Positions 4,309-37,664 of a stretch of DNA of 37,664 nucleotides are shown one piece after another. Source of the DNA: a virus. The notes under the pieces are model-generated. The model was given only the letters and a program-made list of their open reading frames with translations, made no database searches and had not been told where the DNA came from. Each line of letters opens with the position of its first letter. Positions within the stretch are counted from its first letter, which is position 1. The stretch lies in the UHGV virus genome UHGV-0120097; one strand, 5' to 3'. The position numbers and the translations under genes are program-made.

Positions 4309-5004
4309 ATGATATATGGTTATTGCAGAGTATCTACAAAAAAACAAAATATTTTAAGACAGGTGGAAAATATCATAAAGATATATCAAACTGCTAAAGT
4401 ATTTCAAGAATCATATACAGGAACTACAACAGATAGAAAAGAATGGAGTAAGCTAAAAAAAATAGTTAAACCTGGAGATACAATTATATTTGATTCTGTT
4501 AGTAGAATGAGTAGAAATGCAGAAGAGGGAATAAAAGAATATTTTAATTTTGTAGAAAGAGATATTGAACTTATATTTTTAAAAGAGGGATATATTAACA
4601 CAGCCCTTTATAAAAAAGCTTTAGAGAATAAAATAGATTCAACAGGAAATAAAATAGCTGATATATACATAGATGCAACCAATGAAGTATTAAAGATATT
4701 AGCTCAAGAACAAATTAAAATAGCATTTGACCAAGCTGAAAAGGAAGTATTAGACCTTAGAGAAAGAACAAAAGAGGGACTAAGAGTTACCAAAGCTAAA
4801 GGAACTGTATTAGGTAGAAAACAAGGAGATACTTATACTACCAAGAAAGAAAAGGAGATGAGAGAGAAAATAAAAAAACTAGCTAAAGATTTTGGAGGAA
4901 ATCTTAAAGATATAGAAGTCTTTACACTGCTAGGAATAACTAAGAATACATATTACAAGTATAAGAAAAATATTATACTAGAGGAGGCACAAAATGAGAA
5001 ATAA
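4309..5004 (+). CDS. small serine recombinase (resolvase/invertase family)
   Basis: N-terminal MIYGYCRVSTKKQ (the YxRVSTxxQ catalytic Ser motif), DSVSRMSRN, and a C-terminal HTH-like segment. Confidence 0.75.
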   Translation: MIYGYCRVSTKKQNILRQVENIIKIYQTAKVFQESYTGTTTDRKEWSKLKKIVKPGDTIIFDSVSRMSRNAEEGIKEYFNFVERDIELIFLKEGYINTALYKKALENKIDSTGNKIADIYIDATNEVLKILAQEQIKIAFDQAEKEVLDLRERTKEGLRVTKAKGTVLGRKQGDTYTTKKEKEMREKIKKLAKDFGGNLKDIEVFTLLGITKNTYYKYKKNIILEEAQNEK

Positions 5005-5678: not shown

Positions 5679-7475
5679 ATGAAATATTATGAAAAAAAGG
5701 GGAGGTTCTCTTTAGGGGAGATAGACCCACCACTATGTTTTAGGGTAGATACAGATATACCAAACAGAGGATTAGCCTATTTAGAAAATGGACTTATAAC
5801 CTCTTCAGCAGGAATAACTAATTTCCCAGCATTAAAAAAAGTTGCTACTATTCAAGCAGTTACAACTAAAACTATTATAAATGCTTTCAAGATTTTTAAA
5901 TATAAAATTCAAAAGAAAGATACCTCGCTTAGTGGGTATCTTTTTTTATTTAATGAATTAAAAGTAATTATATTAAGAGAAGATAACTTTGAAGTTATAA
6001 AGGAAATAGAAGTAAATTACACAGATGAAGAGATTGAGAATCTAAGTATAGCACAATTCCAAAATAGTGTTATAACTTGTGTAGCTAATAAAAAACCAGA
6101 GATGATAAGAGTTACAGAAGATAGTCAAGAGTTTGATGTAGTAGAGTATTGGGAAAATATAGTAAATCCTCCAGTAAAAAGAGTGGAAACTCAATATCAA
6201 TATACAGATGAAGAAAAACAAGTATTTCAATGGTATCAATCTGGAGCAAGTGTTGTCTTTGAATCTACTATCTCAAGTCCTGTATTTAAACCTACATTCC
6301 TGGACAAATTAAAAGAGGGAACTATTTCCTATATGGCTGGAGAATTTAGAATCAATAAAATAGAGAATAGAGATGGAAAACAAAAGATAACTACTACACA
6401 AGTTACAGCACCAGCAGCTGGAATAGATATTCCTACCTCATCAACTCCAGAAGCTGAAAGAAAAATAAATATCCTTGATATAACTTTCTCTGAATCCCTA
6501 TTCAATGGAGGATATCCAGCAGTAGTGGCAGAGTATAAAGGAAGAGTTATATTTGGGAATGTTGCAGGTAACCCATCAGCGATAGTATCAAGTAGAGTTT
6601 ATGATTCTACTAATTTCAGACAATCAACAGATGATAATGATGGATTTACTACCTTTGTTACTGGTAATGAAGTTAATACTGTTAAAGAGTTTATAGCTTA
6701 TAAATCCTTGATAGTAATAACAGATAGAGGAATTTATTCCACACAATTAAATGAGGGACTAACTACTGAAACATCAGCACTGTACGACCAAAAACTACCA
6801 AGACCTAAAGGGCTTGGGTATTGGACAGAGGCAGACGACGCAATATACTATGTTGACAGTTCCAATAGAATCTATCAAATACAAGACGTAGGGGCAGATA
6901 GTGCTTATGTAGTGCAGGAAGTAACACTATATTCTGGACACTTAATGGATAACATCAATGATATTTACTTTCATAAAATTGGTAAAAACAACATTATAGG
7001 AGTAGATACAGTAAGTGGTGGAAGAGCATTAAGTTATAATTATTCGGAAAATATATTATGTTGGACTAGAGTACCTAAATTGCCTGGAATAAATGAATAT
7101 CTTAATATAGATGATAAACTCTATATCTTCAATGCTAATAATGAAAATATAGATATATACACTTATTCAAGTACAGAGGTAGAACCTTTAAAGTTAAAAC
7201 TACCAAAAACAACTATGTCGCAAAACTACCAAATGCCAATTCCAGAATTTTTAATGAAAGCAAGATTTAAAAATTGTAAGATTTTGTGTTATGGAAATTA
7301 TAACTTAAAAATAAATAACCAAACTAAATCAGTAGGCTTTGGAGAAAATACAGATAATTTTTATGAAAAAATTCACTACATAGACATGGCCAACATTGGA
7401 AAAGAGGAATTAGTTATAGAGCAACTCAATGATGAGAAAATTGAAATAGTAGGAATATTTGCAGAAATAGGATAA
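5679..7475 (+). CDS. putative virion structural protein (tail/nozzle-like), 598 aa
   Basis: Large ORF with SD taggaggcaacaATG. It sits immediately upstream of the 178/703/1633-aa trio; the structural call rests on that synteny only. Confidence 0.45.
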   Translation: MKYYEKKGRFSLGEIDPPLCFRVDTDIPNRGLAYLENGLITSSAGITNFPALKKVATIQAVTTKTIINAFKIFKYKIQKKDTSLSGYLFLFNELKVIILREDNFEVIKEIEVNYTDEEIENLSIAQFQNSVITCVANKKPEMIRVTEDSQEFDVVEYWENIVNPPVKRVETQYQYTDEEKQVFQWYQSGASVVFESTISSPVFKPTFLDKLKEGTISYMAGEFRINKIENRDGKQKITTTQVTAPAAGIDIPTSSTPEAERKINILDITFSESLFNGGYPAVVAEYKGRVIFGNVAGNPSAIVSSRVYDSTNFRQSTDDNDGFTTFVTGNEVNTVKEFIAYKSLIVITDRGIYSTQLNEGLTTETSALYDQKLPRPKGLGYWTEADDAIYYVDSSNRIYQIQDVGADSAYVVQEVTLYSGHLMDNINDIYFHKIGKNNIIGVDTVSGGRALSYNYSENILCWTRVPKLPGINEYLNIDDKLYIFNANNENIDIYTYSSTEVEPLKLKLPKTTMSQNYQMPIPEFLMKARFKNCKILCYGNYNLKINNQTKSVGFGENTDNFYEKIHYIDMANIGKEELVIEQLNDEKIEIVGIFAEIG

Positions 7476-15486: not shown

Positions 15487-16998
15487 TTGAATTTTTTAGG
15501 AAGAGCAGCAAAAAGAAGAGTAACTATTAGTTATAAAAAAGTTATTAAATATCTACACAAAGGACAGAAAGAACTTCTGGACAATGTCTTGGAAAATAAG
15601 AAAAAGTATTTTGCACTAATGGCTCATAGAAGATATGGAAAGGACTTTATTTCACTACTTATTATGATACTAGCAGCTATTCAACACCCAGGAAACTACT
15701 ATATCTATGCACCATACTTTAGACAGGTAAAAGAAATAGTTGTAGATGGAAAAACGTTAAACGGTTTACCTTTACTTGAAAATCTTATACCAGATGAAAT
15801 ACTAGCAAATCCAAGAGGACCTAAAGTTAATAAATCAGATTGGAGCGTAACTTTATTTAATGGAGCTAAAATCTTCTTTCGTGGAGGAGATAACCCAGAC
15901 GCAAGTGTAGGGGTAGGAGCTAGAGGAGTCATTTACACAGAGGCAGCACTTATAAAAGAAAAGTTCTATCAATATATGAAACCTGCAGTTGATATGGTTA
16001 TTAACAATACCGACTTCGGTTTTGTAATATTTATCTCTACACCAAGGGGTAAATATAATTGGTTTACTAAACTATTTATAGATTACTTCACTATCCTAAG
16101 TAAACCAGAAAATAAAGAAATTAAAGATATGTGGTATGTAGATATTCAATCTGGAAAAGATTCCTTGAACTATAAAGGGGAGAGGGTAATAAATGATAAA
16201 GAACTTAGAAAACAAGCTCTTACTATGGACCCAGATTCATACGCTCAAGAGTGGGAATGTAAAATCAATACTCATCTAGTTGGTGCTTGGTATGGAGAAC
16301 AACTAAAAAAAGCTTATGAAGATGAAAGGATAAAGTTTTATGGTAGGTATGAAGAGTTATTAGATAGTGTAAGTAGAAGATATACTCAAATATACACAGG
16401 GCATTTCTGGACACAACAACCTTTATATGTTGCTTGGGATATAGGAAAAAGGGACCATGCAGTATTGTGGTTTTTTCAAAAAAACCCTCACAATAATAGA
16501 ATTAGATTCATAAAACATTATAGAGTTACTGGGCAAGGACCAGACCACTGCTGCCAATATATAAAGAAATGGTGCAAAGATAATGGGTACTATATGCAGC
16601 CTACTATGGTACTACCACATGATGGAGATGTCGAGGAATGGAGTGCAACTTCAAAAAGAAGTGACTACATAAGATTAAATTATTTTAGTGATGTAAGAAC
16701 TCTATCTAAGACAGAGCTAGCTAAAAATGATATGACTACATTAATAAATCAAATCAACTATATAAGAAAGGAGTTTGAAAATGTAGAGATAGATAATAAT
16801 GAGTGTAACATAGGAGTTATACAATTAGGAGGCTATGTCAAAAAATATAACAAGTCCATGAACTGTTACTTAGATATACCAGACCACGACGCAAATGATA
16901 AAGCTTCTGATGACGCAGATTCATTTAGAACTGCTATGATATTTGCTAGCATATATCTAAAAGATAGTTTTGATGGACCACTAACAACTTATTATTAA
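15487..16998 (+). CDS. terL: terminase large subunit
   Basis: ATPase P-loop-like [12 protein letters not shown]; C-terminal RNaseH-like nuclease motifs [21 protein letters not shown] and DDADSF. TTG start after aaggaggtggag. Confidence 0.8.
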
Positions 16999-19931: not shown

Positions 19932-20678
19932 ATGACAGTTTTTTATTATGATAAAGAAAAAGCAGAACAAGGAATACTATTTTGTTTAGGACAAGAAGAT
20001 AAAGTTCTTACTCAAGAAGAAATACAAGAACAAGGAAAATCAGAACTATATGAAAATGTAGTTACTTATACAGGAAATACAGTTCTAATAGGACACCCTA
20101 TTGTTGAGGGAGATACAGTTAGAAAAGCTACTGAAAAAGAACTTATAGATTTAGGCATAAAAGGACTAGAAGAGGGAGAAATACTTGAGGGGGATAATAT
20201 CAAGACAGTTGATAGACCTCAACCTTACCCAGAGGCTTACGAATGGCAAAATACTGCTTGGGTATTAAATCAAGATCTTTTACCAGATGGAGTATACCAT
20301 GATGGAAATAAATTTGTAGAGGTGCCTATACCAGATAACTATATAAAATATCACTGGGAAAGACCTAATTGGATAGATGATACTCAAGATATTGATAGAG
20401 TTGAAAAACAATATGCGGAATATTTAATCTTAAATAATCCATTAGATTGGTCAAAAATGGAAGAACAAGGAGTACTTGAAGATTACAAAACTTTTATGAA
20501 AGAAAATGAAGCTTATTTAGAAAGAGATTCTAAAGAGATAATTACACTAAGTAATATACCACAACCTAGTGAAAAGTTAACTTCTTTTTTCAGCAAAATA
20601 AAAAATCATAATTCTATTTCAATGGATAGAATGATAACAAAAAGTGTTATCTTAAACGGGGGGGGGAACAAAAACTAA
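19932..20678 (+). CDS. hypothetical protein (248 aa) ending in a G9 homopolymer
   Basis: SD aaggaggtataaATG. The last codons run through GGGGGGGGG at 20658-20666. Confidence 0.5.
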   Translation: MTVFYYDKEKAEQGILFCLGQEDKVLTQEEIQEQGKSELYENVVTYTGNTVLIGHPIVEGDTVRKATEKELIDLGIKGLEEGEILEGDNIKTVDRPQPYPEAYEWQNTAWVLNQDLLPDGVYHDGNKFVEVPIPDNYIKYHWERPNWIDDTQDIDRVEKQYAEYLILNNPLDWSKMEEQGVLEDYKTFMKENEAYLERDSKEIITLSNIPQPSEKLTSFFSKIKNHNSISMDRMITKSVILNGGGNKN

Positions 20679-20728: not shown

Positions 20729-21124
20729 ATGAGTAATCTAAATACTAGGATTGCTACATTAGAGGGCAAAGCTGCAACTACTCCAATAACTATGAAAGGA
20801 TTAGCTGATAGATTAGCTCAGGTGGAAGCTACTGCTAAAGATTGGGCTGTAGTTACACTAACAGGCACACAAACATCCCGATGGGCTATCCCTACGCAAT
20901 ATTTAAATGGATATAATTTTTATGTTGTTGGTTGGAGCGGGTTAAAAATGGGATCTTATTATGAACAAGAATATAGTAATAATAGAATAAACCATTATGT
21001 TACGAACGATGGGAGATATCGTTTTATCTATAAATTTGAAAGAAATGGTAATTATATACTATCTGTTAAAGAACAAAGTTCAAATCCTGTAATTGATAAT
21101 ATTACAGTAATGTTTTATAAATAA
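20729..21124 (+). CDS. small fibre-associated protein, paralog B (131 aa); no SD
   Basis: N-terminal module shared with the 19512 gene, with 43 nt identical. There is no recognisable RBS upstream of the ATG. Confidence 0.45.
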   Translation: MSNLNTRIATLEGKAATTPITMKGLADRLAQVEATAKDWAVVTLTGTQTSRWAIPTQYLNGYNFYVVGWSGLKMGSYYEQEYSNNRINHYVTNDGRYRFIYKFERNGNYILSVKEQSSNPVIDNITVMFYK

Positions 21125-21138
21125 GGAGTTGATAAATA

Positions 21139-21576
21139 ATGCAAACATCAGACAAAGGAATAGAATTCCTAATCAAAGAAGAAGGGGGAATAAGATTAAA
21201 AGCATATAAATGTCAAGCTGGCATCTTAACAATAGGAGTAGGTCACACTGGAAAAGATGTCAAAGAGGGAATGGAGATTACAGAGGAAAAAGCAATTGAG
21301 CTTTTAAAACTCGATTTAAGACGTTTTGAAGATGTAGTCAATAAAAATATCAATGTAACTTTAAAGCAACATGAATTTGACGCACTCATAAGCTTAGCTT
21401 TTAACATAGGGTGTGCAGCTTTCTCAAATTCAACCGTAGTTAAGAAAATAAATACGGGGGCAAAAATGTGCGAGGTAGAAGAAGCTTGGAAGATGTGGAG
21501 AAAAGGTGGAGGAAAAGTATTACCTATACTTGTAAGAAGAAGAGAAAGAGAAGTTAAGATGTATAAAGGAGAATGA
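21139..21576 (+). CDS. endolysin, GH24 (T4-lysozyme-like) muramidase
   Basis: GIEFLIKEEGGIRLKAYKCQAGILTIGVGHTG (catalytic Glu/Asp/Thr region) and EFDALISLAFNIG. Tandem stops TGA TAA. Confidence 0.85.
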   Translation: MQTSDKGIEFLIKEEGGIRLKAYKCQAGILTIGVGHTGKDVKEGMEITEEKAIELLKLDLRRFEDVVNKNINVTLKQHEFDALISLAFNIGCAAFSNSTVVKKINTGAKMCEVEEAWKMWRKGGGKVLPILVRRREREVKMYKGE

Positions 21577-21580
21577 TAAT

Positions 21581-22646: not shown

Positions 22647-23311
22647 TAGCTCAACCCCTTTATCTTTTCTTTTAGTTCAGCCTTAACAGTTTTCAACTCT
22701 TTCAACTCTTCCTCTAATTTTCTGATTTTCGCCTCTACCTCCGATAGTCTGGATACCAGCTTATCTTTTTCAGATTCCTCTACTATCTCGGCATCTTCTA
22801 TTTCGAGCATGCTCGAAATAGCTTTCCTTATTTCTTTATCTGTTCTTATTCCAGAAGATAAAATATTCTCAAGTATTCTTACATTAACCTTTTTATTCAC
22901 TAAAGCTTTTACTTCTCTGTCTGAAAAATCTGAAATTAAATTGTTGTATTGTGGATAGCTTAAAGATAACTTATATCTCCCTCTAAGTAGTGATACTTGG
23001 TCTTTATTAAATCCTAAAGCTTGGTACCACTCCATATATGAACTTGGATTTTCAGAGTATCTATCAAATAGTTTTCTTGCCTCTTCCAAGTTTTGACCTA
23101 TTTGTAGTGCTAAAGAAGAGATATTTTCTTTTTTAGTGATAATACTTTTCTCAAATATAATTAATTGATTTTTATCATCATCTGAAAAATTTTCCAATTT
23201 GTTATAATCATATTTCAATATATCTTCTATATCATTTTTTTCTGGAATAATTACTTCTGTATTTTCTTTCTTTTTTAAAATTATAGGTTTTCTATTTATT
23301 TTTATTGCCAT
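22646..23311 (-). CDS. putative partition protein (ParB/centromere-binding partner of ParA)
   Basis: Lies immediately downstream of ParA and overlaps it by 10 nt. Charged coiled-coil C-terminus. No clear ParB box seen. Confidence 0.4.
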   Translation of the reverse strand: MAIKINRKPIILKKKENTEVIIPEKNDIEDILKYDYNKLENFSDDDKNQLIIFEKSIITKKENISSLALQIGQNLEEARKLFDRYSENPSSYMEWYQALGFNKDQVSLLRGRYKLSLSYPQYNNLISDFSDREVKALVNKKVNVRILENILSSGIRTDKEIRKAISSMLEIEDAEIVEESEKDKLVSRLSEVEAKIRKLEEELKELKTVKAELKEKIKGLS

Positions 23312-24060
23312 TTATTTAACAACTCCTTTGTAAGAGCTTTAAAATCCTTAGCCCCATTTGATGTAGAACTATATTCTATTATAAAATGTCCTGTCTGTGA
23401 GGCTTTAAATATTTTAAGATTATCTCTTATAGGAGTATCTAATATGTTATCAAAAGAATTTCTGACATCTTCAGTGGCTTCTAATATCTCTTTGTCATTT
23501 TGTAGCCTATTGATATAACCAAAATGAATGAATGGAGTGTTTAAATCCTTTTTAAGAGCTTGTATAAAGTTCTCTAATAATTCAAATCCTCTAAAACTAA
23601 ATAGATGAGCTTCAACAGGAGTGATAACATAATTACTGCACTTTAACACAGCCCTTTCTATTGCTCTCATATCTGGTCTACAATCTATAATTATATAGTC
23701 ATATTCTTGAAGTTGCTCTAGTCCCTTTTTTAAATCTAGGTAAATCATTTCCATATCAACACTGTCTTTTTTATATTCCAAGTCCTTTAAATTAAGACTT
23801 GCAGGTATTAAATCTAATATATGTTTTCCATCTCTTTCAATAGGAATTATATTTCCTTTTAAATCTTTCTCTTTTATAGCTCTAAAGATATTTTTTTCTT
23901 GGTCTGCTTCTATTAAACTTTCAGTTAGATTTTGTTGAAAGTCACAATCAATAAGCAAAACTTTTTTATTATGAACTAGAGATAGTACCCCAGCAACTTC
24001 TCTGGCACCAGTAGTCTTACCAGTGCCACCTTTTTCTGTTATGAATGATATTATTTTCAT
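23302..24060 (-). CDS. parA: ParA/Soj-family partition ATPase
   Basis: Deviant Walker A KGGTGKTT at the N-terminus (MKIISFITEKGGTGKTT). SD ataggggggtaaaATG. Confidence 0.8.
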   Translation of the reverse strand: MKIISFITEKGGTGKTTGAREVAGVLSLVHNKKVLLIDCDFQQNLTESLIEADQEKNIFRAIKEKDLKGNIIPIERDGKHILDLIPASLNLKDLEYKKDSVDMEMIYLDLKKGLEQLQEYDYIIIDCRPDMRAIERAVLKCSNYVITPVEAHLFSFRGFELLENFIQALKKDLNTPFIHFGYINRLQNDKEILEATEDVRNSFDNILDTPIRDNLKIFKASQTGHFIIEYSSTSNGAKDFKALTKELLNKWQ

Positions 24061-24069
24061 TTTACCCCC

Positions 24070-25194
24070 CTATATTAAATCCTTATATTTTTTTATATAC
24101 TCTCTTACTTCCTCTGGTTCATAACCAAAATCCTCTCCAGTAGCTTGATATATTTTCATAGCATTTTGATATTCTTCATTAGTTAGTGGAGTTGTTTTTT
24201 TCTTGACTACTGGCTCTTCAACTTCTTTTATTTTTTCTGCTTCCTTAGTTCTTCTTATAACTATTTTTCTTTTAGGTTTATTGATATTGTCCTCTATGAC
24301 TTTTACTAGGTAATTAAGACTTGTAAATTCTGTTTTAATTAAATCATAAGCAGCTTTCAATCCTTTTTCTAATTGTTCTTGGCTAAATTTATCTAAAAGT
24401 TTTATTATATTATCATCAGTCAAGAAAGGTTTTACAAATCTATTTTTCTCTGCTTTCTCAATAGCTGATAATAGCTCTTCTGAAATCTCTATTTCCTCTT
24501 CCTCTTCTATTGTTTCATCAACCTTGTTATCTTTCCAAGTAAACTCAAACCCACTTATAAATTTACCATCTTTTATTTTTTTTACTTTCAAACCTTCAAA
24601 ATATTGTGGTAACTCTTTCATAATAGGAGGCAATACTCTTTTGTTTATAACTGCTGTATCATAGCTTTCTGGAACTCCTAATTCTCTTCTGAAATCTTCA
24701 AGAGTTATAGTTACTTTTTTTATTTTATTCCACTTTTTCAAAATAGAATACATTAGTTGTGAATATCCAGATTTTAAATTAGAATATTCTATCAAAGCTT
24801 GAATTGTATAAGGAGCTTGTAAATGATTTAGCAAATATTTATAGTCTGGATTTATTCTTATTCTAACTGTTTTCTCTTTCTCATCTACTGAAAAGGTTGG
24901 AAACAAGACCATATTTGTAAATCCTTCATCTTTTCTTATTTGCATAACTTGTAATCTTAAAAGCTTATCACTTAATTCTTTTAAAAAGCTATAAATATTA
25001 TCTCCTTTTTTTCTTGCAGAATAATTTGCAATTTTTGAAATCTCTGAAACTTTAAAAGTTACAACTTCATCTTCCTGTTCCATAATCTTTAAACAAAGAG
25101 CTAAAAAAACTGCTCTTTCTTTTACTGAATAATTTTGTAATTGGAGATTATGGAAATCTTTATGATGTATTAGATTATATTTTTCTTGACTCAT
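24070..25194 (-). CDS. rep: Rep_3-family plasmid replication initiator
   Basis: Segments TIQALIEYSNLKSGYSQLMYSILKKW and ITLEDFRRELGVPESYDTAVINKRVLPPIMKEL match the Rep_3 initiator signature. An iteron array lies immediately upstream. Confidence 0.7.
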   Translation of the reverse strand: MSQEKYNLIHHKDFHNLQLQNYSVKERAVFLALCLKIMEQEDEVVTFKVSEISKIANYSARKKGDNIYSFLKELSDKLLRLQVMQIRKDEGFTNMVLFPTFSVDEKEKTVRIRINPDYKYLLNHLQAPYTIQALIEYSNLKSGYSQLMYSILKKWNKIKKVTITLEDFRRELGVPESYDTAVINKRVLPPIMKELPQYFEGLKVKKIKDGKFISGFEFTWKDNKVDETIEEEEEIEISEELLSAIEKAEKNRFVKPFLTDDNIIKLLDKFSQEQLEKGLKAAYDLIKTEFTSLNYLVKVIEDNINKPKRKIVIRRTKEAEKIKEVEEPVVKKKTTPLTNEEYQNAMKIYQATGEDFGYEPEEVREYIKKYKDLI

Positions 25195-28105: not shown

Positions 28106-28447
28106 CTATGCTATCGCTTGTAGGTTGCTTCCTTGTACTCTTTGCCAACCATATTTTTGTTTTAACTCTTCATAATCTCCCTTGAATGTTCCTTTTCCTT
28201 TTTTCTCTCCAAAGTACCATTTTTTTCTTTTAGCACTCCATCTAAAACCAAGTTCTTTTAACTGTTCCTTGTATAAGAAAGTATTACCAGATACCCATAT
28301 CCAAGAGCCTACAACATCAATCTCTAAACCATGGAAATGTATTATTTTCTTTAGTATCTCCATAACCTCTGGAGCTATCTCTTCCCCTGCTTCCCTTGCT
28401 TGTTGTTTAAATCCCTCAAGTTGTATTCTTTCATACTCTGCCATCAT
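28106..28447 (-). CDS. hypothetical protein
   Basis: 113-aa ORF. Confidence 0.45.
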   Translation of the reverse strand: MMAEYERIQLEGFKQQAREAGEEIAPEVMEILKKIIHFHGLEIDVVGSWIWVSGNTFLYKEQLKELGFRWSAKRKKWYFGEKKGKGTFKGDYEELKQKYGWQRVQGSNLQAIA

Positions 28448-28607
28448 CTCTTTGAAGTCCTCTTCGTTTCCACCATGGTCTGGGTGTAATCTCTTACATA
28501 ATTCTCTATATTGTTTTTTAAATCCTCGTTACTGTTAAAGTATTTATACATATTACCAACTCCTTATATTTTCTACTTGCTTTTATGTTTTTTGTGGTTT
28601 ATAATGC

Positions 28608-28734: not shown

Positions 28735-29391
28735 ATGGAAAAAAAGACAGGAGAAACTTTAAAAAATATTAGAAAAAAATATAACATTACAGGAGAAAAG
28801 ATGGCAGAAATTTTAGGGTGTAGCACTCAATTTATTTATGCAATAGAAAAAAATAAAAATAAATTTCCTGTAAAAAAATTAGAATTGATAAAAAATATTG
28901 TATCTGAAATCGATTATTTCGATTTAATAGAAGCAATAAAATTTGATACTGAACCTGCAAGCCTTAAAAACGAAGTTTTAAAAATCCAAAGTATAGAAGA
29001 GATAAAACAAAAGAAGATACCTTTTTATCCAGATATTGAAGCTTCAGCAGGGTATGGAAGATTTAATGATAGTGAAATTGTAGAGTTCTTAGAAGTTCCA
29101 GAAGATTTAGCAAGACCAGGAAATATAGCTATAAGAGTTGCTGGAGATTCTATGGAACCAGAGATTAAAGACGGAGATACTATTGTAATAGATACAAATT
29201 GTATAGAATGTATTTTAAATAAAATAATAGTTGTTAATTATCAAGGGGCAGTATATTTAAAAAAATATGTTGAAGAAAATGGAAAAATATTTTTAAAAAG
29301 TATAAATCCATATTACCCTAAAATTAGAATAGGAAACAGAGAAGAACTTAGAGTTATTGGGAAGTTAAAAAGTGTTATGAGGTATTATTAG
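28735..29391 (+). CDS. CI-like repressor (XRE HTH + S24 LexA-like peptidase domain)
   Basis: N-terminal LKNIRKKYNITGEKMAEILGCSTQFIYAIE HTH. C-terminal AGDSMEP (Ser nucleophile) with a downstream Lys. Transcribed divergently from the early operon. Confidence 0.85.
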   Translation: MEKKTGETLKNIRKKYNITGEKMAEILGCSTQFIYAIEKNKNKFPVKKLELIKNIVSEIDYFDLIEAIKFDTEPASLKNEVLKIQSIEEIKQKKIPFYPDIEASAGYGRFNDSEIVEFLEVPEDLARPGNIAIRVAGDSMEPEIKDGDTIVIDTNCIECILNKIIVVNYQGAVYLKKYVEENGKIFLKSINPYYPKIRIGNREELRVIGKLKSVMRYY

Positions 29392-30844: not shown

Positions 30845-31933
30845 ATTGTAGATACCGCAAGTATAAATTATTCAGTTAGACAAACTGACTTTGATTTTAT
30901 AATCGGGTCAGCTAATCTATTACTGAAAGAAGAGGCACAAGCAGAAAATAAAAGAATATTATATAAAAATATCCAGCTAAAAAAATTTAGCTGGTTAAAC
31001 TTTATAGGAGTAGAGGAGAAAAGAAACTCTATAACTATAACAATATCTTTTAGTTATTCCAGATATGATAACAATGACAATTACAAGCTAGCAAAAAATA
31101 AAAAAGTTATTGCTCAAGTACATCAAGAATTAATCTTAATACTTAGAAGCATAACAGGGGAACTTGTAAGAGAAGAGGATATAGTTATAACAAGTCTAGA
31201 CCTCTCAAACCAATTAGAAGTTGAGAACATTAGAAATTATTATCAAGTTTTAAATTTGATATACAGAGCCTATAAAAATATCTTTCCAACCTCAAGAATG
31301 TATTTTGATACAGACAACAAAAAAAGATTGGAACTTGACGGAGTAGACTTTAGAGAAAAAGGTAAAAGACCAAGAGATAGCAAGGCTTACTTTAAAATCT
31401 ATTCCAAAAGAAAAGAGATGGAAGATACGGGAAAAGAGGGAGTAAAGAAAAGACAAGCATTAAGAGGAGAGTTGACACTAAGACCTCCGCACCTCAAGAC
31501 CTACAACTTAAATCATCTGGGTGGAATAACTAAAGATAATCTAGCTGCAGCACTTAGAAAAACAATAGGAGCAATACTTACAGAGCAGATAGTCAAAGAG
31601 TTAAACTATGACATCACGGAATTAAAAAAGATAGTTGCTCCAGGAACTAAGGGGCTAGCAGAAAGACTTATGATGAAAGAGTATTTAATATTTGATATTA
31701 GATTACTTGATGTTGTAATGACTGAAAATAATATGAGTATTAAAAAAAGAGCTATTCAATACCAGAAAAAGAAAGTTATTGAAAAGCTGGAAGAGCTAGA
31801 AAAACTTGGAGAGATTAAAAAGTCTTATTCCAAGAACTTTGAAAGATTGGAAAAACTACTCAAAAAAATAGCTAAAGTTAGTATAAAAATAAGACTAGGA
31901 GAAGAGGGGGCAGAGTTAGAATGGCAGGAATAA
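30845..31933 (+). CDS. hypothetical protein (about 363 aa) with no canonical start codon; probable ATT initiation
   Basis: Frame 2 is open for 137 codons upstream of the first TTG (31256), starting right after the strong SD aaaagggggtggg at 30828-30840. The only triplet at the correct spacing is ATT at 30845. The 3' end overlaps TerS. Confidence 0.45.
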   Translation: MVDTASINYSVRQTDFDFIIGSANLLLKEEAQAENKRILYKNIQLKKFSWLNFIGVEEKRNSITITISFSYSRYDNNDNYKLAKNKKVIAQVHQELILILRSITGELVREEDIVITSLDLSNQLEVENIRNYYQVLNLIYRAYKNIFPTSRMYFDTDNKKRLELDGVDFREKGKRPRDSKAYFKIYSKRKEMEDTGKEGVKKRQALRGELTLRPPHLKTYNLNHLGGITKDNLAAALRKTIGAILTEQIVKELNYDITELKKIVAPGTKGLAERLMMKEYLIFDIRLLDVVMTENNMSIKKRAIQYQKKKVIEKLEELEKLGEIKKSYSKNFERLEKLLKKIAKVSIKIRLGEEGAELEWQE

Positions 31934-33175: not shown

Positions 33176-33766
33176 ATGGAAGATAGAATTAAAAATCTAT
33201 TTCGTAGTAGATTCCAGGAGGCACAACAGGAAAGAAATGTAATACTAGCTTGGTATTTGAAAGCTAGAGCACATTTTCTACCAAGAGAAATTAATTTAAA
33301 TGGTGTAGACAGTACAGGACTAGCATATGCTACTAAGTTAGCTAACAAGTTATCAGCTATGATACTTAATAGTAATCATATCTGGGCTTGGATAGAAACA
33401 CCAAGGTTTGAAGATATATCAAGAGATGACAAGATTATCTTTAGACGCATAACAGAAATAGTATTTGATGAGATTCAAGAAAATTCTAACTTTGAAACAG
33501 AGAAAGCTGTAATTCTTATGGACTACCTAATAGGAACGGCAGTTTTTAAAGTTAGATTTACTGGTAAAATTGCAAATCCCGTGGAATTTCAACCAGTACC
33601 CAATATAAATGTTTATCTTACTAAAAGAAGAGGTAAAGAACCTGGAGATGTATTCTACAATGCAGGCAAAGTGAGAAAACATCAGATTCTTAATCTTTTT
33701 GGAGAAAAGGCTTATAACTCTGAAAAAGTTCAAAGAATGTCGCAAGATGACGAGATAGAGTTGTGA
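33176..33766 (+). CDS. portal protein, N-terminal part (ends at an in-frame TGA)
   Basis: Strong SD. The position (TerS ... portal-scaffold-MCP) and the combined size (about 502 codons) fit a portal. A TGA at 33764-33766 interrupts the frame. Confidence 0.5.
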   Translation: MEDRIKNLFRSRFQEAQQERNVILAWYLKARAHFLPREINLNGVDSTGLAYATKLANKLSAMILNSNHIWAWIETPRFEDISRDDKIIFRRITEIVFDEIQENSNFETEKAVILMDYLIGTAVFKVRFTGKIANPVEFQPVPNINVYLTKRRGKEPGDVFYNAGKVRKHQILNLFGEKAYNSEKVQRMSQDDEIEL

Positions 33767-33796
33767 GAGGGGACAATATACGACCAAGAAACTAAA

Positions 33797-34684
33797 ATGT
33801 TTCATTATGTAGTTTCTACTTCGAATGAGTTCACAGACGTTTTAGATCACAGGATAGACACTTACAATCCGTGGATAGTTGCAAGATATGAAAGTATTGG
33901 AGATAGTCCATATGGTATAGGACCTTGTGTTAAAGCGATAATGGAGATTGAGGGGCTAAAAGAAGTTAAAGCTAACATCAGACGTATTGCTAAGAAACAG
34001 GCTAGACCAAGCTATTTAGGTTATGGGCAAGCTAAATATATTCAGAACTCAAGAATAGATGAGCCAGGAGCTATATCTTTAATGGGACAATCACCAGGGC
34101 AAAATCAGATAATACCATTCAACAGGGGAGAGAATGCTAACATGGAGTTCTTTAACCTGGATATGTACAAGGAACTTTTAAGAGATATATTCTATATCAA
34201 CCTAATTGAGAGTGTTCAGAACATAGACCAATTAAAGAATGTTACTGCAACAACAACTCAAGCAATAGTAACAGAGTTCTCAAGACAAATAGAGCCAACA
34301 TATGCACTAATGCAAAGGGAACTATTAAGAGAGATAGTTATAAAAGTTTTTCAATGCTTACAAAAGATTAGCATTATAGATATATCTAAAATTAAAGCTT
34401 TACAGGAAAACCCAAGATTAAAGATAAGATTCTACAATGCCTTGACTATTGCTCAAGACCAAGACGACCTCGAAAGAAATATGTTGTATTTCCAAAATAT
34501 AGCAAGCACTCTGGGACCTCAAGTTGCAGCAGCTAATATGAACCAAGCAGAATACATAAACGCTCAACAAAAAAGGTTTAGAATCAATAACAAAGAATGG
34601 AAATCTGGAGAGGAAACAGAAAAGCAAGTTGAGGAAATGAACGCTATGATAGCTGCACAACAAGGGGGAATGATAGAGCAATGA
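33797..34684 (+). CDS. portal protein, C-terminal part (same frame as 33176..33766)
   Basis: Frame 2 is continuous from 33767 through 34684. There is no SD before ATG 33797. Confidence 0.5.
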   Translation: MFHYVVSTSNEFTDVLDHRIDTYNPWIVARYESIGDSPYGIGPCVKAIMEIEGLKEVKANIRRIAKKQARPSYLGYGQAKYIQNSRIDEPGAISLMGQSPGQNQIIPFNRGENANMEFFNLDMYKELLRDIFYINLIESVQNIDQLKNVTATTTQAIVTEFSRQIEPTYALMQRELLREIVIKVFQCLQKISIIDISKIKALQENPRLKIRFYNALTIAQDQDDLERNMLYFQNIASTLGPQVAAANMNQAEYINAQQKRFRINNKEWKSGEETEKQVEEMNAMIAAQQGGMIEQ

Positions 34685-34902
34685 CAGAAGATGTAAAAGA
34701 ATTTGAAACCCTAAAGAGAAGATATAGAGATGATAGAGCTTTAAAAAGATTGTTTGAGTTATATCTAATACTTGAGCATAACAAAGTATCTATCATGAAT
34801 GAAAAAGGAGTTGATACAACAGGTAAAGTAAAGGAGATAACAGGAGCAAACAGTTTATATATTGAGATATTTACAAAGGAGGCAAAAGAAGAAAATGACT
34901 GA
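34681..34902 (+). CDS. hypothetical small head-module protein
   Basis: 73 aa with an ATGA overlap with the portal stop. Confidence 0.45.
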   Translation: MTEDVKEFETLKRRYRDDRALKRLFELYLILEHNKVSIMNEKGVDTTGKVKEITGANSLYIEIFTKEAKEEND

Positions 34903-35557
34903 TAAAGAAAGATTTAAATTTAATATCCAATTATTTGGAGGAGCAGAGGGAGGAGATACAGGAGGAGAACCTACACCAAATTCAGAGCCAACAATAAATA
35001 CAGGAGCTGGAGGAGAACCACCACAACCAAGTGGAGATAATAGAGCAGGGGCAGAACCTAAATTAGAGCCATTAACTTGGGAAGGAATAAAGGCAGAAGA
35101 TTACCAAGAGATTGGAGATATAGCACCATATATCGCAGAGGCTCAAGAAAAAGGTTACACTCCAGAGTACATTAAATCAAGACTAGATGATAGAAAAGCT
35201 TATCTAGCAGAACAAAAAGCAGCTTTCACTCCAGAACTTAATGCAAGTATGGAAGCAATAAATAACTTCATAGGAGCAGAGAAAGACACAGATAGACAGA
35301 TAGTATATAGAGCTATGGCAGAAAATGCAATAGGAGCTCAAATCCTAAAGGAATACATGGAAATGAAAGCAGGAAGTACAGGAAGTGTAGTAGGAGTTGG
35401 AAAAACACAGCTTTCAACAGATTATACACATGATGGATTCATTGAGGCTTATAATCAATCTTTAGATACAAATGATAAAGGTTTAATGAATAAATTAAAA
35501 GAATATGCACAAGCTAAAAAGCAAGATGACCCATTTTATTGGGATTTTATAAAATAA
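34895..35557 (+). CDS. scaffolding protein with an N-terminal Prp-type cleavage motif
   Basis: MTDKERFKFNIQLFGGAEGG..., a low-complexity Gly/Pro/Glu linker and an alpha-helical remainder. It sits immediately upstream of the capsid gene. ATG at 34895 after aaggagg. Confidence 0.5.
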   Translation: MTDKERFKFNIQLFGGAEGGDTGGEPTPNSEPTINTGAGGEPPQPSGDNRAGAEPKLEPLTWEGIKAEDYQEIGDIAPYIAEAQEKGYTPEYIKSRLDDRKAYLAEQKAAFTPELNASMEAINNFIGAEKDTDRQIVYRAMAENAIGAQILKEYMEMKAGSTGSVVGVGKTQLSTDYTHDGFIEAYNQSLDTNDKGLMNKLKEYAQAKKQDDPFYWDFIK

Positions 35558-37374: not shown

Positions 37375-37664
37375 TGAAAAAGCAATTTCTAACAACTAAG
37401 GTTGTAGAAGTAGAGGAAATGAGTAGGAAAGAATATTGTCAAAGCAGAGGTTGGGAGTTACCAGCTAATGAAGATGGAGATGAAAGAGTATTCAAAGTAT
37501 TCTATGAAGATGGATATGTTTCTATGTGTCCTAAAGATAGATTTTTAGAGCAAGCATATGAAATAGAGAATAATAAAATTCCAGAAAAATTAGTAGATGA
37601 CTTCATAGTAGAGAAAAATATCTACACTAAAATTATGTTTGGTAAGAAAACTACTGTAATGGAA
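37375..37664 (+). CDS. hypothetical protein (5' part; continues past the window end)
   Basis: SD ggaggtagtaggaATG. Open to the window edge. Confidence 0.45.

Follow-up and report, generated by a model that had tools for sequence, protein, structure and literature searches.

The portal, or head-to-tail connector, is a dodecamer at a capsid vertex, with 12 subunits per virion. Structures are available for T7-type portals such as T7 gp8 and orf12 of the Legionella phage LME-1 (PDB 9efk, 7ey6 and 6r21). Portal genes and other essential morphogenesis genes can be damaged by opal mutations, as in classical conditional-lethal or leaky phage mutants and in prophage pseudogenes; a single-base change of TGG to TGA leaves the remainder of the gene intact, and the expected phenotype hinges on suppressor or near-cognate tRNA-Trp activity. 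A UGA stop can also be used by design, as in phage Q-beta, where programmed read-through by tRNA-Trp extends the coat protein into A1. Here we describe a portal gene with an in-frame TGA in UHGV virus genome UHGV-0120097, a DNA of 37,664 nucleotides that was analysed over its whole length (the window). The element that carries it resembles phage-plasmids (P1-, N15-, SSU5- and LME-1-like) in being a closed circle in which phage structural, lysis and repressor genes accompany Rep3 and ParA genes.

In the window, two open reading frames (ORFs) on the plus strand, 33176-33766 (196 residues) and 33797-34684 (295 residues), lie in the same frame and are separated solely by the TGA at 33764-33766; the letters at 33758-33772 are GAG TTG TGA GAG GGG, with ACA next. 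The complete portal frame, 33176-34684, translates into 502 sense codons and one internal stop. It begins at an ATG with the Shine-Dalgarno (SD) motif AAGGAG 9-10 nucleotides upstream and ends at a natural TGA stop (34682-34684) that overlaps the ATG of the next gene (ATGA). The joined sequence matches PF12236 (Head-tail_con, the T7-type portal family) with 99.3 bits over profile positions 4-475 of 489, the Pfam gathering cut-off being 27. Taken alone, the halves score 29.5 and 65.3 bits, and they are collinear on the profile (positions 4-198 for the N-terminal half and 249-475 for the C-terminal half), so both ORFs belong to a single gene and chance juxtaposition is excluded. The sequence-only reading had proposed a single portal gene, otherwise open for about 502 codons and thus of typical portal size, with one TGA in frame. 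This description holds: both halves belong to one portal family, and relatives encode one uninterrupted protein of 502-503 residues, not two proteins. With a TGA at codon 197, the locus does not itself provide the one uninterrupted polypeptide of about 500 residues that characterises PF12236; it is a mutated member of the family, effectively a pseudogene or a conditional allele.

The relatives identify what stood at codon 197 before the stop. Uninterrupted homologues at 95, 90, 89, 88 and 87% identity were found in a collection of 5.8 billion proteins, along with many more down to about 40%. All close relatives examined, which are 87-99% identical, have TGG at the codon. In an alignment of full-length homologues reaching to about 40% identity, the TGA column holds Trp in 18 of 23, all close ones included, and the neighbouring Glu198 is invariant; the residues seen at the site are W, I, V, T or Y, and Cys occurs in none. 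Furthermore, each of 13 additional sequences from the same 90% cluster has DDEIELWEGTIYDQETK at this position, and the stop is limited to a single lineage in a cluster of more than 130 distinct sequences. The DNA of nine related loci (L006-L014) has TGG where the window has TGA, and in L006-L009 and L014 the 30 nucleotides before and the 45 nucleotides after the codon are identical to those of the window, so the lesion is a single G>A transition at 33766. Similarly, the family profile matches the solved LME-1 portal 9efk with E = 3e-22 and aligns the Trp ('idlWeat' against 'VDIWECA'). Judged from these alignments, Trp197 is deep-rooted in the family. Comparison with related portal genes had been suggested as a check when the TGA was first noticed, with a nonsense mutation, a sequencing error and low-level programmed read-through as the alternatives; a sense codon, TGG, in all relatives examined and TGA here speak for the first of these.

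The likeness to T7 gp8 and LME-1 orf12 extends from the near full-length profile match and the aligned Trp to the fold, although sequence identity with solved portals reaches only about 13-20% and the window gene is broken at codon 197. The break was placed on an AlphaFold2 model of an intact, 95%-identical homologue (P0001) standing in for the window protein, with a mean predicted local distance difference test score of 74 and values of about 90 around the site. A Foldseek search with this model retrieved the LME-1 portal 9efk (E = 1e-20) and entries for T7 gp8 (E of about 1e-13), and the wing, stem helices, clip and crown of the portal fold are present in it. Residue 197 lies within beta-strand 193-203 of the wing domain, and C-terminal to it follow the stem helix (250-276), further strands, a second long helix (373-397) and the helical crown. 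Accordingly placed on the gene by the model, codons 198-502 (33767-34681, plus strand; profile positions 249-475), which are open and conserved, would specify the rest of the wing together with the stem, clip and crown.

The allele appears on an otherwise well-kept gene. Set against three distinct relatives, the portal gene of the window has 31 positions of its own. The stop apart, nearly all of these are third-position synonymous changes, also past the stop, which indicates that purifying selection acted on the portal during essentially its whole divergence and that the stop is recent. The 305 codons downstream contain no further stop and no frameshift. General decay of the element was considered as well and rejected, as an ORF-by-ORF comparison with relatives found all comparable ORFs at full length except for two homopolymer-tract variants, both of which are also present in other strains.

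The standard genetic code applies to the element. About 11,400 codons of predicted genes contain 90 TGG and a single in-frame TGA, and stop usage is 35 TAA, 12 TAG and 6 TGA, the last figure including the internal portal codon. TGA terminates five ORFs, namely 2000-2425, 2502-2732, the lysozyme gene (21139-21576), the portal gene itself (34682-34684) and 34681-34902, two of them with an ATGA overlap onto the next gene; the portals of relatives likewise terminate at TGA. The sequence-only reading had treated TGA as an ordinary stop on the strength of the first three of these, which is correct, but its label 'MazG' for 2000-2425 has no Pfam support at E<=0.001. When all six frames were rescanned with TGA as a sense codon, no long ORF other than the portal was meaningfully lengthened, and codes 4 and 25 (UGA as Trp or Gly) were thereby ruled out together with the codon counts and the five TGA-terminated ORFs. 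A phage-encoded suppressor tRNA was also ruled out, a tRNA gene search of the element having found none. As a separate observation, TAA directly follows two of the five genuine TGA terminators (TGATAA at 21574-21579 and 34900-34905), and a further stop lies within 3-6 codons of each of the remaining ones; these tandem stops may be an effect of AT-rich sequence or a back-up for a leaky UGA.

Taken together, we estimate at roughly 80% the probability that a recent, ordinary TGG>TGA opal mutation of Trp197 truncates the portal. The G>A change at 33766 would have converted the conserved Trp codon in the single T7/LME-1-type portal gene of the element, so that ribosomes starting at ATG 33176 would stop at codon 197 and release a 196-residue N-terminal fragment (33176-33763, plus strand) as the expected main product, ending within the wing-domain strand. 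Because the stem, clip, tunnel and crown all lie downstream of the stop, this fragment would lack every channel-forming part, would build no dodecameric DNA channel and should be unable to act as a portal. The copy would then be portal-deficient, with particle formation defective or at best strongly attenuated, and efficient particle building by it is probably not possible. It could be maintained and pass vertically as a plasmid with the help of genes that it carries itself, those for the Rep3 initiator, the ParA partition ATPase and the S24 repressor. Full-length portal would arise only by unprogrammed basal misreading of the UGA by tRNA-Trp; such read-through would recreate the exact wild-type protein because the mutated codon was Trp and UGA is misread by tRNA-Trp.

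This is an event of an already-known kind, a nonsense mutation in a gene of a mobile element, and not an evolved programmed device; no new coding or regulatory mechanism is revealed. It differs from the classical opal mutants in being natural and in an uncultivated gut phage-plasmid known from sequence alone. For annotation, the two ORFs should be treated as one portal pseudogene (or opal allele) and not as two genes. Moreover, particle production should not be assumed for this otherwise complete-looking 37.7-kb circular genome, and phage-plasmids can evidently carry knockouts of morphogenesis genes and still persist.

Several points count against this conclusion. The word 'defective' may be too strong, given that UGA is the leakiest stop, that tRNA-Trp is the tRNA that misreads it and that a virion takes 12 subunits. 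The identity of the host and its termination efficiency bear on that word; the link to Fusobacterium described below comes from the name that NCBI gives to a single record, that of a relative. A SPAdes contig (ENA ERZ651902, NODE_562_length_37719_cov_5.88), to which the window is equal apart from a 55-nucleotide terminal overlap that it lacks, has only about 5.9x k-mer coverage, and accession names alone do not establish independent individuals for the assemblies with the TGA. In addition, a strain of 100% identity recurs under several accessions, which could be a sign of continued spread, in keeping with some residual infectivity.

The alternative that survives best builds on these points, and holds that tRNA-Trp, or a host opal suppressor, decodes the UGA often enough to supply sufficient portal, so that the phage is attenuated and not dead. 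We regard this as possible but unlikely. Only 12 copies are required per virion, so that little read-through would be needed, and the stop falls exactly on a Trp codon, where near-cognate decoding restores the wild-type sequence. The remaining genome looks intact, the strain is recorded under several sample accessions, and TGATAA at two of the five TGA-terminated ORFs is compatible with a leaky-UGA host. In E. coli and B. subtilis, normal tRNA-Trp is known to misread UGA at a low rate, and for E. coli an A at position +4 has been reported as a context that favours this (PMC5289835). In the portal gene, however, base +4 is G, and the 101 nucleotides at 33750-33850 fold no better than shuffled sequences (z = 0.07), with no structure that would stimulate read-through. 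The plasmid lifestyle, moreover, accounts for persistence without particles, and the amount of full-length portal is not estimable from sequence. A 2026 Nucleic Acids Research paper deals with bacterial tRNA-Trp molecules that have 4-bp anticodon stems, and neither Fusobacteria nor phages are mentioned in it. A more specific version, which we consider somewhat less probable still and put forward tentatively, is a self-suppressing nonsense allele that yields a few percent of wild-type portal and throttles virion output, leaving the phage-plasmid attenuated yet transmissible. If true, it would explain why an identical strain is found under several human-gut sample accessions. The peptide MSQDDEIELWEGTIYDQETK would be the mark of UGA decoded as Trp at this site.

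A sequencing or assembly error, with TGG as the true codon and an intact portal, was one of the explanations first offered for the TGA and now appears very improbable. The low coverage of the contig speaks for it, as does the chance that several of the TGA-bearing assemblies derive from one run, ERR1578621. A split portal 100% identical to that of the window is nevertheless present in the MEGAHIT assembly ERZ917558 (38,887 bp) and the Logan assembly of that run, and in short contigs under ERZ28599229 (SAMEA104142377, 3 samples) and ERZ27262083; ERZ919108 (ERR2017474, PRJEB21528) contributes further pieces of this strain. Recurrence of the identical TGA across assemblies with several accessions makes a read error an unlikely source, and substitution errors seldom reach the consensus across several assemblers (here SPAdes, MEGAHIT and Logan) and data sets.

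It is less credible again that the portal is made in two pieces, the 196- and 295-residue products being translated apart by reinitiation at ATG 33797 and assembling in trans. This ATG (33797-33799, plus strand, codon 208) is the first in-frame ATG past the stop and lies 30 nucleotides beyond it, so termination-reinitiation is conceivable. The absence of an SD at this start, already remarked on in the sequence-only reading, was confirmed: no SD-like core lies within 20 nucleotides, whereas one is present at 35 of the 38 other starts of the window. Met208 is not conserved either, being K in P0001 and L in P0004. A start here would drop 11 residues, W197-K207, among them W197, which is conserved, and E198, which is invariant, and with no SD and these conserved residues lost, the downstream 305 codons are unlikely to be independently translated to any useful extent. 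The break, furthermore, would fall inside a beta-strand of the wing core, and a split portal was found in no relative.

Evolved recoding, whether by programmed read-through of the Q-beta A1 type, by UGA as Trp or Gly or by selenocysteine, has as its sole point in favour that the UGA falls on a Trp position, and can be dismissed as scarcely credible in view of the code usage described above, the unconserved stop (TGG in all relatives), the +4 G, the lack of an encoded tRNA and of any selenocysteine insertion sequence (SECIS)-like or stimulatory structure, and the absence of Cys at the site in homologues. Were any read-through to occur, it would resemble that of Q-beta in that a normal tRNA-Trp decodes UGA as Trp. 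In Q-beta, however, a conserved stop stands after a complete protein and what follows it is an optional extension, whereas here a stop of one lineage truncates the essential core of the protein. The suggestion of programmed low-level read-through is thus not borne out, and the opal mutation of Trp197 is retained as the explanation of the interrupted portal frame.

The element is probably a phage-plasmid with podovirus-type structural genes, as its gene content suggests, since structural and lysis genes stand alongside Rep3 and ParA on one closed circle. The circle is closed by contig ERZ917558, which runs from position 37664 into position 1 of the window. Domain matches identify a Rep3 initiator (Rep3_N/Rep3_C; 24070-25194, minus strand) and a ParA-type ATPase (23302-24060, minus strand), and an S24/helix-turn-helix repressor (28735-29391) and a 231-residue serine recombinase, or resolvase (4309-5004), lie on the plus strand. 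Phage functions are represented by a tail protein (5679-7475; phrog_376), a weak terminase-large match below the Pfam gathering cut-off (15487-16998), a lysozyme (21139-21576; PF00959) and a holin. In addition, there are a 1633-residue protein, a pair of fibre proteins with collagen repeats, of which one has an S74 chaperone domain, and recombination genes of the Sak and Gp157 types. The long contigs of the family are all about 37-38 kb and have no host flanks, which is suggestive of extrachromosomal maintenance. The initial description of the element as a defective prophage therefore needs to be divided: the nonsense mutation is supported, but the closed circle with Rep3 and ParA points to a phage-plasmid and not to an integrated prophage.

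Related elements, with contigs about 37-38 kb long, are common both in IMG/VR and in metagenomes from the human gut. The portal of one of them carries the NCBI name Fusobacterium gonidiaformans (WP_337742984.1; locus L013, GCA_037419695.1), and this record name, together with a GC content of about 30%, suggests a Fusobacterium host that uses the standard code. A blastn search against GenBank phages gave no match, and an exact 35-mer was absent from IMG/VR. Two scans of species-representative genomes returned nothing in the first and only a 42%-identical match, in a metagenome-assembled genome labelled Faecalimonas, in the second, and PLSDB gave only a 23%-identical match to a Legionella plasmid. 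The collections searched thus held no close cultured phage or plasmid record. Unlike the known phage-plasmids, the element has no nucleotide or close protein match in the phage and plasmid collections searched, and its maintenance as a plasmid is proposed from its genes.

Part of the gene content differs within the family. Sequestin and Tad2-like proteins are anti-defence families, and Pfam matches to both (PF21825 and PF11195) occur downstream of a 102-residue gene in L006-L008, for example at 12544-13239 of L006. The window has a different cassette at that place, and the region appears to be variable or accessory in the family.

The two homopolymer variants do not bear on the verdict on the portal, and they are more intriguing than its stop. 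Between the collagen-like tail-fibre genes and the lysozyme gene, a poly-G tract at 20658-20666 (plus strand), set in a genome of 30% GC, is G9 in the window and splits ORFs 19932-20678 and 20729-21124: the frame shifts to a TAA stop at 20676-20678, and the ATG at 20729 has no SD. In L016 the tract is G10, which joins both ORFs into a 397-residue protein with 98-100% identity; several further samples likewise have G9. The tract is a candidate for phase variation by slipped-strand mispairing, for programmed frameshifting or for transcriptional slippage in a tail or receptor-binding gene.

The second tract lies in a J-domain gene on the minus strand (ATG at 28551), the first gene of a leftward early operon, which in relatives encodes 148 residues with an HPD motif. 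In the window its A-run, T6 when read on the plus strand (28514-28519), has the length A6 and shifts the frame after codon 12, so that the HPD motif is lost; the 113-residue ORF at 28106-28447 is a remnant of the frameshifted gene. Seven relatives have A7, the divergent strain L023 (SRR27418651) again has A6, and another, L025, has A8. The heptamer A_AAA_AAC is a classical -1 slippery sequence. It is created in the zero frame by the A6 form, and a -1 slip would restore the wild-type LKKQ. Since length variants recur in other strains, both tracts look like hypermutable or slippage-prone sites rather than decay of this copy.

A further minor observation concerns the start of a gene of unassigned function (phrog_36664). 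The ORF at 30845-31933 (plus strand, 363 codons) is a full-length homologue of the 362-residue proteins of relatives, and was considered as a second site of TGA for Trp at its start; this was ruled out, the stop there being TAG and the likely start ATT. The ORF opens with ATT directly after the TAG and offers no ATG, GTG or TTG for 137 codons, and a strong SD, AAAGGGGGTGGG, ends about 6 nucleotides upstream of the ATT. The same arrangement is seen in L006 and L010, while L007 has TGG for the TAG and its gene was called from a GTG inside the SD. As far as these sequences indicate, the ATT is likely to be a conserved non-canonical start.

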